64,000 nt of DNA from assembly GCA_963754655.1 (NCBI GenBank), contig CAVWGN010000001.1:352001-416000 (forward strand). Direction: 5' to 3'. The notes below the pieces were generated by a model. That model was not told the DNA's origin. It searched no databases and saw only the letters and a list, made by a program, of their open reading frames with translations. Shown in pieces: positions 25,296-64,000 of the stretch. A program made the position numbers and the translations under genes. Every line of letters starts with the position of its first letter. The first letter of the stretch is position 1. Source of the DNA: an uncultured Chlamydiae bacterium. Lineage in GTDB: Bacteria > Chlamydiota > Chlamydiia > Chlamydiales > Parachlamydiaceae.

Positions 25296-26134
25296 TAGTA
25301 CTCAACCACATTAGTTTTGTGTATTTAGATTGCTTGAAAGCTCCCGCAGTTGGGATGAGATGATTCTCTTGTAGTCCTTTAGACTACATGATGAGAGCTA
25401 ATGTAACCCAGGGTTAGGGTGTTAATTTTGTGCAAAAAATGAGCTTTATTTTTCACAATAATTGGCATAGTTGAATTGAAGGTCGCATGTTTATGCCGTC
25501 CTTTCAGGACTCGATGTCTTTTTGATAGAACCCAGGCCTCCGCTTCGCTGCGACCTGGGCTGTAACATGACGGCCCTTCAGGCCTTAACAAGAGATGTTT
25601 AAGTCCCTCTTCTATAGTCCCTAAATCATCTTTTTGTTAAGGCCTGAAGGGCCGTCATGTTACAGCCCAGGTCGCAGCGAAGCGGAGGCCTGGGTTCTAT
25701 CAAAAAGACATCGAGTCCTGAAAGGACGGCATAAACATGCGACCTTCAATTCAACTATGCCAATTATTGTGAAAAATAAAGCTCATTTTTTGCACAAAAT
25801 TAACACCCTAACCCAGGGCGATGCCCTGAGTTATTTTTATTTGAAGCCTTTCAGGCTCTGAACATTGGACGTCTTTTTGTTAACCGTCTCTAAAATGATT
25901 GTGGAGTATGTAGCATTTAATAGACGTGGGCCCTACAATCGTTATAGAAGCAGATCTTCTAAAAATGTCCAATGTTCAGAGCCTGAAAGGCTTCAAATAA
26001 AAATAGCCCAGGGCATCGCCCTGGGTTAGATTAGCCCTCGTCATGTAGTCTGAAGGACTACAAGAGAATCATCTCATCCCAACCGGGGCCTGTGAATCAC
26101 TCCCAATAGGCAAAACTAATGGGGTTGAGTACTA
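25296..26134. mobile_element. Composite non-autonomous element (MITE-like shell carrying REP-like palindromes), copy 2
   Basis: Terminal inverted repeats TAGTACTCAACC...GGTTGAGTACTA flanked by a direct AGGC on both sides (25292-25295, 26135-26138). Internal palindromes at 25417-25808 and ~25832-26005. No credible coding capacity. Confidence 0.8.
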
Positions 26135-26224
26135 AGGCGTGTTTGCAAAATGCTAGCATGTGTAAATACGCCCTATTCTAGCAAAGAGATGTAAGCTATT
26201 TTAACTGTAAGTTTAACCTAAATT

Positions 26225-27601
26225 ATGGAATTTGTTCATCAAACTTATTATCCTGGCGAAACCATTGCCGCTATTGCAACCCCTCCGGGTGAAGGAGGGG
26301 TTGCCATTATTCGCATTTCAGGCAATCAAGCCCTGGATGTTGCCGCGCGGGTTTTTTCCGGAGCTGTGCATCACTATCGTTCACATACCGTTCATTTTGG
26401 ACAAATCCATAATGCCCGGGGAGAACATTTAGATGATGTGCTGCTTCTTGTTATGTTGGGATCGCGTTCTTATACAGGTGAAACAACTGTAGAAATTCAC
26501 TGTCATGGAGGAAGCCTGATCACGCGCCGCGTGTTGGAGGCAGTGCTCATGGCAGGTGCCCGAGCTGCGCAACCTGGCGAATTTACTTTCCGCGCCTTTC
26601 TCAATGGCAAAATGGATCTGGCACAGGCAGAAGCAGTGCAGGCATTGATTGGTGCTAAAAATGAACGTGCTTTGGACGCAGCTGAAAATCAACTCAAAGG
26701 AGCACTTTCGCAATCGATTGCTCAATTTCAGCAAAAGCTAACGCAAATTGCAGCAATTTTGGAGGCATGGGTTGATTTTCCAGAAGAAGGGCTTGAATTT
26801 GCCACAATGGATGAAATTGGTGACGATTTAGAAGATATCTGCTTAGCGATGGAAAAGCTAGCCTCTACTTTCCATAATGGCAAAATTCTACACGAGGGTC
26901 TCTCTTTATGCTTGGTTGGTTGTCCCAATGTAGGAAAATCATCCTTAATGAATGCTTTGCTGAACAAAGACCGTGCCATTGTCTCTCCAATTCCAGGAAC
27001 AACGCGCGATATTTTAGAAGATCAACTGCGTCTGAATGGTCTTCATTTTAAAGTGAGCGATACAGCCGGCATTCGCAAAACAGAAGAAGATATTGAGCAA
27101 GAAGGCATCCGTCGCTCTAAGCAAGCAATGCAGCAAGCAGATCTTGTTTTATTGGTTTTAGATGCTCATCGTGGATTGACTGACGAAGACCTGGAGCTAC
27201 TTACTCTTGTTCCACCTGAAAAAACCATTGTGATTTGGAATAAAGTCGATCTTCCATATGAGAGGCTGCCAGCCCTTTCTTTTCCGTTTACTGTGCAACT
27301 TTCGGCAAAGCAGCGAGAAGGATTAGAAGAACTGCATCAAATGATAGATCGGTTGATTTGGCAAAAGGGTCCTCCATCAAAAGAGGAAATTTTGATTACG
27401 AACATTCGCCATAAAGAAGCTTTGGTGAGCGCCATTGAAGCGACCCGCCGTGTGCAGCAGGGCTTACGCCAAGGAATTTCGCCTGAATTTTTAACAATCG
27501 ATATGCGGCAAACTCTAAGCGAATTGGGAAAGGTATTAGGCGTCAACATTACCGAAGATATATTATCAGCAATCTTTTCTAAGTTTTGTATTGGAAAGTG
27601 A
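26225..27601 (+). CDS. mnmE: tRNA modification GTPase MnmE (TrmE)
   Basis: TIAAIATPPGEGGVAIIRISG, GCPNVGKSSLMN, GTTRD, DTAGIR, NKVD, C-terminal FCIGK. Confidence 0.97.
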   Translation: MEFVHQTYYPGETIAAIATPPGEGGVAIIRISGNQALDVAARVFSGAVHHYRSHTVHFGQIHNARGEHLDDVLLLVMLGSRSYTGETTVEIHCHGGSLITRRVLEAVLMAGARAAQPGEFTFRAFLNGKMDLAQAEAVQALIGAKNERALDAAENQLKGALSQSIAQFQQKLTQIAAILEAWVDFPEEGLEFATMDEIGDDLEDICLAMEKLASTFHNGKILHEGLSLCLVGCPNVGKSSLMNALLNKDRAIVSPIPGTTRDILEDQLRLNGLHFKVSDTAGIRKTEEDIEQEGIRRSKQAMQQADLVLLVLDAHRGLTDEDLELLTLVPPEKTIVIWNKVDLPYERLPALSFPFTVQLSAKQREGLEELHQMIDRLIWQKGPPSKEEILITNIRHKEALVSAIEATRRVQQGLRQGISPEFLTIDMRQTLSELGKVLGVNITEDILSAIFSKFCIGK

Positions 27602-61213: not shown

Positions 61214-61214
61214 T

Positions 61215-64000
61215 CGGGACTTAACAAAGAACTGTTTTTGGGATTGATATTCATCGCGTCAATTTAACAACACCACGCCTGTAAAAGGCTTTAGGGGTAT
61301 ATTTCTCGAAAATGACGCGAAAAATATCAAGCCCAAAACAGTTCTTTGTTAAGTCCCGGCATATGGCTAGGTAATCGGAATTTTTTATCTTTGTTTTTTC
61401 AATGTTGCTTGATCCATATCATTTCCCTCAGCGACGAGCGGCATTAGCCGCGCATGGATAGTAGCCGTGGGTGTAGGCACAAGCCGAAACCCACGGTTAC
61501 CCAAAAAACAAATTTGAGCCACGTTAGTGGCGTAGCATTCGTTTAAATAAACATTGCTCCACAATCACATTTCCTACGCCACTAACGTGGCTTCATTTTT
61601 TTTACCATACACCGTGGGTTCCGGCTTCGCCTACACCCACGGCTACTATCCATGCGCGGCTAACGCCGCTTGAGCGACAAATTTAGCTGCTGGAGTTTGC
61701 CAGAAGCATTTCGTTCCTAGCCTATGGCCGGGACTTAACAAAGAACTATTTTGGGCTTGATGTTTTTCGCGTCAATTTAATAGAACCATGCCTATAACAG
61801 GCTTTAGAGGGGTATTTCTCGAAAATGACGCGAAAAACATCAAGCCCAAAACAGTTCTTTGTTAAGTCCCGGAATATGGCTAGGTAATCGTAATTTTTTT
61901 ATCTTTGTTTTTGCAATGTTGCTTGATTCATATCCCTTCCCTCAGCGACGAGCGGCGTTAGCCGCGCATGGATAGTAGCGGTGGGTGTAGGCGTAAGCCG
62001 AAACCCACGGTTACCCAAAAAACAAATTTGAGCCACGTTAGTGGCGTAGCATTCGTTTAAATAAACATTGCTCCACAATCACATTTCCTACGCCACTAAC
62101 GTGGCTTCATTTTTTTACCATACACCGTGGGTTCCGGCTTCGCCTACACCCACGGCTACTATCCATGCGCGGCTAACGCCGCTTGAGCGACAAATTTAGC
62201 TTCTGGAGTTTGCCAGAAGCATTTCGATCCTAGCCTATGGCCGGGACTTAACAAAGAACTGTTTTTGGGCTTGATATTCTTCGTGTCAATTTAACAACAC
62301 CACGCCTGTAAAAGGTTTTAAAGGCATATTTCTCGAAAATGCCGCGAAAAACATCAAGCCCAAAACAGTTCTTTGTTAAGTCCCGGCCATAGGCTAGGAA
62401 CGAAATGCTTCTGGCAAACTCCAGTAGCTAAATTTGTCGCTCAAGCGGCGTTAGCCGCGCATGGATAGTAGCCGTGGGTGTAGGCGAAGCCGGAACCCAC
62501 GGTTACCCAAAAAACAAATTTGAGCCACGTTAGTGGCGTAGCATTCGTTTAAATAAACATTGCTCCACAATCACATTTCCTACGCCACTAACGTGGCTTC
62601 ATTTTTTTACCATACACCGTGGGTTCCGGCTTCGCCTACACCCACGGCTACTATCCATGCGCGGCTAACGCCGCTTGAGCGACAAATTTAGCTTCTGGAG
62701 TTTGCCAGAAGCATTTCGTTCCTAGCCTATGGCCGGGACTTAACAAAGAACTGGTTTTTGGGTTTGATATTCTTCTTGTCAATTTAACAACACCACGCCT
62801 GTAAAAGGCTTTAAAGGCATATTTCTCGAAAATGACGCGAAAAACATCAAGCCCAAAACAGTTATTTATTAAGTCCCGAACCCACGGCTACTATCCATGC
62901 GCGGCTAACGCCGCTTGAGCGACAAATTTAGCTTCTGGAGTTTGCCAGAAGCATTTCGTTCCTAGCCTATGGCCGGGACTTAACAAAGAACTGTTTTTGG
63001 GCTTGATATTCTTCGTGTCAATTTAACAACACAACGCCTGTAACGGGATTTATAGGCATATTTCTCGAAAATGACGCGAAAAACATCAAGCCCAAAACAG
63101 TTCTTTGTTAAGTCCCGGCATATGGCTAGGTAATCGGAATTTTTTATCTTTGTTTTTGCAATGTTGCTTGATCCATATCCTTTCCCTCAGCGACGAGCGG
63201 CGTTAGCCGCGCATGGATAGTAGCCGTGGGTGTAGGCGCAAGCCGAAACCCACGGTTACCCAAAAAACAAATTTGAGCCACGTTATTGGCGTAGCATTCG
63301 TTTAAATAAACATTGCTCCACAATCACATTTCCTACGCCACTAACGTGGCTTCATTTTTTTACCATACACCGTGGGTTCCGGCTTCGCCTACACCCACGG
63401 CTACTATCCATGCGCGGCTAACGCCGCTTGAGCGACAAATTTAGCTTCTGGAGTTTGCCAGAAGCATTTCGTTCCTAGCCTATGGCCGGGACTTAACAAA
63501 GAACTGGTTTTTGGGTTTGATATTCTTCTTGTCAATTTAACAACACCACGCCTGTAAAAGGCTTTAAAGGCATATTTCTCGAAAATGACGCGAAAAACAT
63601 CAAGCCAAAACAGTTATTTATTAAGTCCCGAACCCACGGCTACTATCCATGCGCGGCTAACGCCGCTTGAGCGACAAATTTAGCTTCTGGAGTTTGCCAG
63701 AAGCATTTCGTTCCTAGCCTATGGCCGGGACTTAACAAAGAACTGTTTTTGGGCTTGATATTCTTCGTGTCAATTTAACAACACAACGCCTGTAACGGGA
63801 TTTATAGGCATATTTCTCGAAAATGACGCGAAAAACATCAAGCCCAAAACAGTTCTTTGTTAAGTCCCGGCATATGGCTAGGTAATCGGAATTTTTTATC
63901 TTTGTTTTTGCAATGTTGCTTGATCCATATCCTTTCCCTCAGCGACGAGCGGCGTTAGCCGCGCATGGATAGTAGCCGTGGGTGTAGGCGCAAGCCGAAA
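61215..64000. repeat. Higher-order tandem array of two palindromic modules (runs off the window)
   Basis: Module A (~144 bp, CGGGACTTAACAAAGAAC...GTTCTTTGTTAAGTCCCG) at 61215, 61729, 62242, 62734, 62974, 63487 and 63726. Module B (~233 bp, AGCGGCGTTAGCCGC...GCGGCTAACGCCGCT) at 61437, 61951, 62444, 63196 and 63947, plus two half copies. Confidence 0.95.

Follow-up and report, generated by a model that had tools for sequence, protein, structure and literature searches.

Repetitive extragenic palindromic (REP) sequences and the tyrosine transposases associated with REPs (RAYTs) make up the REPtron or REPIN-RAYT systems (REPIN, REP doublet forming hairpin), on which Nunvar reportedly wrote in 2010. 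In insertion sequences of the IS200/IS605 type, such as IS608 and ISDra2, hairpins serve as recognition sites. According to the accessible portions of Bertels and Rainey (2011, PMC3116915) and Di Nocera (2013, PMC3733652), a REPtron consists of a Y1/HUH gene between inverted palindromic repeats that are dispersed in the genome, with gene-less inverted doublets, several gene-repeat pairs per genome and a 5' NTAG tag on the hairpin, and a REP is one hairpin of 20-40 nt. The same portion of Di Nocera (PMC3733652) presents the TIRtrons (their genes are the TIRYTs), in which tyrosine-transposase genes carry long inverted repeats able to build up families of moderate abundance, an acidobacterial group included. 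Subclass 1.2 of the TnpA-Y1 enzymes is treated by Quentin, Siguier, Chandler and Fichant (2018, PMC6006769), the available part of whose paper places it mostly in Cyanobacteria and Bacteroidetes, describes it without IS200-type terminal structures and lists no REP for it. Here we examined a repeat module of three hairpins (A, B and C) in a 64,000-nt stretch of DNA from an uncultured Chlamydiae bacterium of the Parachlamydiaceae (GenBank assembly GCA_963754655.1, contig CAVWGN010000001.1, positions 352,001 to 416,000 of the forward strand), which we call the window, and in the rest of that genome. The module is very probably the cognate site, that is, the inverted end repeats, of small IS200-like Y1/HUH genes of subclass 1.2, a little-studied class, with hairpin C always lying next to the gene.

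The module and its genes

A preliminary description of this DNA had set apart three repeat families which differ in sequence and share one arrangement of hairpins. When we reread the sequence, the three units lay at the coordinates given for them, with the stems and spacers described: family 1 is GGCCTGAAGGGCC-11 nt-GCCCAGG..CCTGGGT-19 nt-GTCCTGAAAGGAC, while the spacers are 13 and 18 nt in the family 3 unit (25980-26061) and 12 and 20 nt in the family 2 unit (61438-61531). Folding with DNA parameters gave exactly three hairpins for each unit, and the window holds 12 occurrences of the hairpin A motif of family 1 where 0.73 would be expected. The module begins with the small hairpin A, followed after about 11 nt by the larger hairpin B and after a further 19 nt or so by the small hairpin C, which usually has a G-N-A triloop. 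Hairpin B is preceded by NTAG and framed by CC...GG-T; the tag is GTAG in family 2 and ATAG, ACAG or CTAG elsewhere, the AG and the C ahead of the hairpin are invariant and the spacers are conserved. The proposed likeness of hairpin C to hairpin A holds within the families of this genome and is weak across phyla, where A and C stems show 3.25 versus 2.90 identical positions of 5 and the two loops are identical in 49 of 139 units, with 45.8 expected. The geometry is not special to the three families but is the conserved flank of a whole enzyme class, and we consider it highly likely that one module of about 85-95 nt underlies families 1, 2 and 3 and no fewer than four others in this genome, each lineage having its own version of it.

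Six intact Y1/HUH genes of five lineages (R1, R2a/R2b, R3, R4 and R5; 37-49% identical) are present in the genome, which also holds one canonical IS200 TnpA and fragments, and each of the five co-resident lineages is paired with its own version of the module. The gene within the window is R1 (43750..44202, minus strand), which encodes 150 amino acids from an ATG at 44202, a longer open reading frame (ORF) reaching 44241. Its product matches PF01797 at 7.8e-25 and has the HUH, WQ and Y---Q--HH motifs. R1 has family 1 units on both sides, inverted and with hairpin C toward the gene. The unit at its 3' end (43655..43741, plus strand) comprises A, B and C and scores 81 bits with the covariance model described below and 36.4 bits, on the minus strand, with the Rfam model RF01687. 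The inverted unit upstream (44226..44314, minus strand) is 81% identical to it and keeps hairpins A and B; its C is degenerate and runs into the beginning of the longer ORF, and the model match is 30 bits. Upstream of both R2a and R2b lies a full unit with the family 3 version of hairpin C, and downstream a C' hairpin; as a whole, the flanking unit is 0.74 (R2a) and 0.70 (R2b) identical to family 3. A single downstream unit, 79-80% identical to family 2, accompanies R3; R4 has units on both sides with a long and bulged hairpin B, and R5 a single downstream unit with a long second spacer. The expectation that Y1 paralogues tied to families 2 and 3 would be found elsewhere in the genome was thus borne out by R3, with its family 2-like unit, and by R2, with its family 3-like units.

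The units of the doublet called family 1b are 0.93 identical to the flank of R1, and the doublets called family 1a carry the R1 gene with an internal deletion. In family 3 copies the sequence just past hairpin C is homologous to the last codons of the R2-type gene, and a dead R2-type gene with internal stops and without its own stop codon (60923..61177, minus strand) lies between two family 3 hairpin C tails (60911-60953, plus strand, and 61170-61213, minus strand).

All within 6 kb of one another, R2a, R2b (L001 5233-5685; genome C1:2544233-2544685) and the truncated R2c seem to belong to a segmental duplication. A further Y1 pseudogene with one in-frame TGA was seen at C1:452890-453195, and beside it, at 453744-453793, a segment like the outer segment of family 1a.

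To which class do the enzymes belong? R1-R5 pass the NCBI IS200 model NF033573 with 63.5-73.3 bits (64.3 for R1; cutoff 55), the canonical IS200 copy of the genome scoring 148.4 bits. The RAYT model NF047646 (cutoff 80) is not reached, R1-R4 scoring 22.6-25.3 bits (22.8 for R1) and R5 giving no match. The closest solved relatives are the TnpA proteins of ISDra2 and IS608, and no RAYT structure was among the Protein Data Bank matches at E<=0.01. As far as the available part of PMC6006769 defines them, the motifs of subclass 1.2 (DH[IV]H, WQ, Y---Q--HH) and its C-terminal tail are found in R1-R5, the exceptions being DHLH in R5, Y---Q--YH in R3 and NHVH in R2b. The enzymes are, by their sequences, IS200-like TnpA-Y1 of subclass 1.2 and not canonical RAYTs. 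They share with that subclass, as presented there, the motifs, the conserved C-terminal tail, a length of about 150 amino acids and a low copy number; unlike the description, they have a three-hairpin flank, which we found in 64 of 80 loci of other phyla, and they occur in many phyla. Measured against the same part of that paper, the flanking units correct the published description of subclass 1.2 rather than exclude membership, and a Y1 subclass described without a cis partner gains one.

The system works like a REPtron or REPIN-RAYT system, but with another enzyme class and a composite three-hairpin site. Inverted copies of a dispersed repeat flank R1 (family 1), and the units of R3 and R2 are related to families 2 and 3. 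Gene-less inverted doublets comprise 60 family 1 pairs and 29 family 2 pairs, their mobilisation by the Y1 enzyme being putative; several gene-repeat pairs share the genome, and hairpin B carries the 5' NTAG tag. Taken alone, hairpin B resembles a REP, which is an imperfect single palindrome 20-40 nt long preceded by a 5' GTAG, its own tag being NTAG (GTAG in family 2), but it always stands with A and C at fixed distances in a module of about 90 nt, whereas a REP, in the portions of PMC3116915 and PMC3733652 cited above, is one hairpin. The enzymes, moreover, fail the RAYT model (at most 25.3 bits versus 80) and group with the IS200-like class 1, and the copies lie inside larger shells. The IS200/IS605 elements have the closest solved enzymes, yet their ends are two different hairpins on one strand, not inverted, and they make no target duplication; here copies of one module, inverted to each other, form the ends, direct repeats stand at 5 of 7 family 1a pairs, the genes are single-copy and diverged, and none of eight canonical IS200-like loci carries such a unit. 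The TIRtrons are probably the same phenomenon at lower resolution, although neither the three-hairpin geometry, nor conservation across phyla, nor a link to Rfam is described in the accessible portion of PMC3733652.

Conservation in other genomes

Genes of this type are present in 16 of 30 related genomes, with flanking units of the same geometry and different sequences whose hairpin C faces the gene. A hairpin finder supplied 24 units of this genome and of related ones; we aligned them, and RNAalifold returned exactly three helices. Compensatory changes were seen in 11 of the 16 base pairs, and the covariation score of 0.567, against 0.172 for shuffled alignments, was reached by none of 500 shuffles. 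A covariance model built from these units (model R1) was then run on 80 loci around homologues in other phyla, among them Acidobacteriota, Planctomycetota, Verrucomicrobiota and Bacteroidota, where it gave 139 matches at E<=0.001 in 64 loci. In 54 of the 80 loci the gene has a unit no more than 60 nt away whose C hairpin faces it, and 25 of those have one on each side. Compensatory changes affect 15 of the 16 pairs in the alignment of the 139 units; structure has been kept while sequence diverged, as the preliminary description held. With abundant compensatory changes and with Y1 paralogues associated with families 2 and 3 both found, its interpretation of the repeat families is supported. The model had no match at the eight canonical IS200-like loci (the genome's own copy and seven in relatives), nor at R4, R5, L018, L028, L031 and L032.

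Census of the gene-less copies

In blastn searches of the genome, families 1, 2 and 3 gave 347, 81 and 163 matches, of which 243, 36 and 34 span 85% or more of the unit. A geometric scan with hairpin geometry as its sole criterion and no sequence given found 158 + 164 + 2 = 324 units, whereas three shuffles of one large-contig strand gave 4, 0 and 1. The scan misses family 3 proper because of its GC rule on the hairpin C stem. A genome search with the covariance model yielded the best 150 of 1360 candidates, and those checked against the blastn matches were all family 1; as only these best 150 were in hand, the census was taken from the geometric scan. Its units fall into 11 clusters, which we read as at least seven families: family 1 (233 units), family 2 (66, and 3 in a second cluster), the family 3-like F6 (6, and 1 more), F7 and F5 (4 each), a symmetric family 3 variant (3), an F4-like cluster (2), the R3 flank (1) and one remaining singleton. 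Gene-less doublets have multiplied to about 240 family 1 and about 70 family 2 units, and to 34 full units of family 3 with 92 copies of its tail (B arm and C). The genome would make a good test bed, with five diverged enzyme-site pairs of which three are amplified to tens or hundreds of copies.

The arrangement of these copies differs from family to family. In the family 1b doublet hairpin A points inward, and of 60 pairs 51 have a spacer of 56 nt and 9 a spacer of 55 nt. Around the doublet lies a palindromic shell of 396 bp that has termini of its own, and the shells themselves sit in CCCWGGG or CCCCGGGG palindromes, often the hairpin B stem of family 3 (at 25413 and 60516 in the window). 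Family 1a elements have hairpin C inward and a 119-nt centre, and are found at C1:234025-234330, 960463-960768, 972972-973277, 1797162-1797467 and 2325112-2325418. Family 2 doublets have outer segments and usually abut palindromes that we call X. Nested shells show how the hairpin of one repeat family becomes a landing site for others, and the hairpin B stem of family 3 acts as a hot landing site. One such nest, outside the window at C1:1781387-1784011, lies in a symmetric family 3-like palindrome and reads GCCCAGGGC, X, GCCCAGGGC, a 1.9-kb insertion sequence, GCCCAGGGC, a family 1 shell, GCCCTGGGC, X' and GCCCTGGGC.

In same-genus genomes, whose coding DNA is 67-73% identical, no family 1 unit was found and no empty-site comparison was obtained. 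Among public runs, three soil metagenome runs of one study held related DNA in small shares, with the repeats in other contexts as well; their contigs gave neither an empty site nor an excision joint. At 23700-25130 some of these short contigs match unique parts of the window without a difference, and a very close strain is present in the soil study at low depth.

Alternative explanations

How might such a module function? Each enzyme may bind and cut its own module as single-stranded DNA, as homology with the TnpA of IS608 and ISDra2 and with the RAYT/REP pair would suggest. Hairpin B would be the REP-like recognition hairpin, A and C might mark or present the flanking sites, and the divergence of the stems could keep co-resident systems from cross-reacting. 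We infer that the modules form a recognition code read by paralogous enzymes, as the preliminary description proposed. A bolder version, with five orthogonal pairs, a HUH/Y1 specificity code set by the stems and a Y1 transposition with long structured inverted ends and 5-7-bp duplications, seems unlikely to us. If true, it would mean a specificity code set by the A, B and C stems around an invariant NTAG-CC...GG-T core, and a mode of transposition with target duplications that has not been described for Y1 enzymes. Were the stems to set specificity, the enzymes could be re-targetable cutters of single-stranded DNA.

Several observations weigh against the assignment of the module to the Y1 genes or against spread by their enzymes. 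Units stand on one side only of R3 and R5; the intact R2 genes have flanks only 70-74% identical to family 3, and the one gene between true family 3 tails is a dead copy; and in R2b an N replaces the conserved D ahead of the HUH motif. The units at R4, R5 and L018 were seen by eye or by folding and not by the model, and among the loci of other phyla 16 of 80 are without a match at E<=0.001 and 9 of 80 at E<=0.01 (hand tally). The share of paired cells, 96.1% against 75.6% shuffled in the 24-unit alignment and 98.8% in the 139-unit one, is partly circular because the hairpin finder picked the 24 units and the larger alignment was fitted to the model. Most copies lie inside larger palindromic shells, and the 8-mers flanking the 44 full shells agree better as inverted repeats in 26 and as direct repeats in 3, being palindromic in 1 and neither in 14. 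Lastly, family 1a elements have outer inverted repeats of about 60 nt and AT-rich direct repeats of 5-7 bp at 5 of 7 pairs, which are not expected of IS200/IS605-type transposition or of a Y1/HUH element.

Could unrelated GC-rich hairpin repeats have come to share the geometry by chance? Small hairpins rich in GC are frequent and the resemblance of A to C is weak across phyla, but 324 units stand against 0-4 in shuffles, the AG and C before hairpin B do not vary, the spacers are kept, and the covariance model finds the module at homologous genes in other phyla and at 0 of 8 canonical IS200 loci. Because of the shuffle control, the matches across phyla and the compensatory changes this explanation is already contradicted, and we give it hardly any credence. 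A structured non-coding RNA deserves somewhat more thought. All seven family 1 units in the window match RF01687 (Acido-Lenti-1) at 36.4-38.7 bits, the gathering score of 37 being reached by one of them (38.7 bits, 60631-60685) while the other six score 36.4. The two hairpins and the spacer of RF01687 correspond to B' and A' of the module, on the strand opposite A-B-C; unlike the module, the motif is filed as a small RNA and is without hairpin C. The available portion of Weinberg (2010, PMC2864571) lists it as a candidate small RNA and says nothing of a connection with a Y1 gene, its function is still called unknown in two preprints of 2026, and no paper in the literature searched ties Acido-Lenti-1 or subclass 1.2 to such flanks. 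Covariation cannot separate RNA from single-stranded DNA, and in many loci hairpin C ends about 10-25 nt ahead of the start codon, so that control of translation is possible as a second function. However, the units are inverted pairs flanking a gene, with hundreds of nested palindromic copies in either orientation, and families 2 and 3 share the geometry yet have no match to RF01687 at E<=0.1. The T.G pairs that close loops, 11 in hairpin A and 25 in hairpin C of the 139-unit alignment, would be C.A on the other strand and thus favour the strand opposite to the Rfam model. Of the 139 units, 93 have GAA and 21 have GTA as the loop of hairpin C, and such G-N-A triloops are very stable DNA mini-hairpins. 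These pairs and triloops, with the inverted arrangement, therefore favour, without proving it, a module that acts as single-stranded DNA on the A-B-C strand. That it is instead a structured RNA, as Rfam files B' and A', or a 5' untranslated or terminator element of the Y1 gene, is improbable in our judgement. If the module is the DNA site of the Y1 enzymes, an abundant Rfam motif with a function called unknown since 2010 gains a likely identity, as DNA and not RNA.

A different question is what has multiplied the copies. The units may derive from the ends of Y1 genes and owe their copy number mainly to other transposases that move the shells as cargo, a reading which we hold as possible rather than probable. 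It is favoured by the family 1b shell with its own termini, of which there are 44 full copies and parts at 159 loci, and by the stacking of shells, X palindromes and the 1.9-kb insertion sequence at GCCCWGGGC, the hairpin B stem of family 3, which recurs at the ends of the soil metagenome contigs. The direct repeats of family 1a point the same way, as do the outer segments of the 29 family 2 pairs, which measure 62-82 nt and almost always abut X, and the family 3 elements, which run about 55 nt past the gene remnant. Against it, no insertion sequence was found with termini matching the outer repeat of family 1a or the shell; the family 1a outer segment is followed directly by a family 1-type hairpin A in 19 of 22 occurrences and in none marks the end of an insertion sequence in its own right; most shell flanks are inverted; and REP doublets, in the accessible text of Bertels and Rainey (2011, PMC3116915), are the mode of RAYT spread. 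An IS481-like element found within a family 1a copy has unrelated ends as well. Because of the shells and the direct repeats, our confidence is high for the identity of the module as the site of the Y1 enzymes and low for what has spread it; other mobile shells may account for much of the high copy numbers.

The IS481-like element just mentioned lies in L125 (C1:629601-631700), where it interrupts the first spacer of a family 1a unit and is accompanied by a duplication of 6 bp (CATGTT). Its ORF of 377 amino acids was judged by eye to be an IS481-like integrase-type transposase, and we rejected it as the source of the family 1a ends. We likewise rejected the shell as a classic target-duplicating element moved by a hAT-like insertion sequence, given the flanks (26 of 44 inverted, 3 of 44 direct); the hAT-like termini and those of the shell have only the first few bases in common.

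Other elements of the window

Several elements of the window show these arrangements directly. A 396-bp shell with a family 1 doublet (25415..25810) interrupts hairpin B of a family 3 unit on the minus strand; its units, 25498-25584 (minus) and 25641-25727 (plus), have hairpin A inward and a 56-nt spacer. The family 3 unit that it splits is left as a hairpin C part (25371..25413, minus strand) and a part with hairpins A and B (25808..25857, minus strand). With the intact family 3 unit to its right (25980..26061, plus strand), recognised by folding and blastn, it makes up a doublet whose A hairpins point inward across a spacer of 122 nt. Likewise, a plus-strand family 3 unit is split at 60468..60953 into A and B (60468-60517) and a B arm with C (60911-60953) by a family 1 shell (60515-60909) whose units are 60598-60684 (minus) and 60740-60826 (plus). 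A third family 1 doublet (20598..21007) has an expanded core (20680-20925) of three 56-nt spacers separated by back-to-back A/A' hairpins, and on either side of it stands a hairpin C tail of family 3 (20480-20518, minus, and 21096-21137, plus).

Toward the end of the window, family 2 doublets alternate with X palindromes of about 150 bp (61200-64000). The first doublet (61438..61669) consists of units at 61438-61531 (plus) and 61578-61669 (minus), with hairpin C inward and 46 nt between the C hairpins. Further ones within 61953..64000 lie at 61953-62181, 62446-62673 and 63198-63426, and another runs from 63950 to the window end. CTAG recurs at the junctions between modules here and at other element junctions. 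Elsewhere in the genome there are four TLC-type nucleotide transporter genes (C1:3051924-3067500 and 2718511-2719848), which fits a chlamydia-like intracellular organism.

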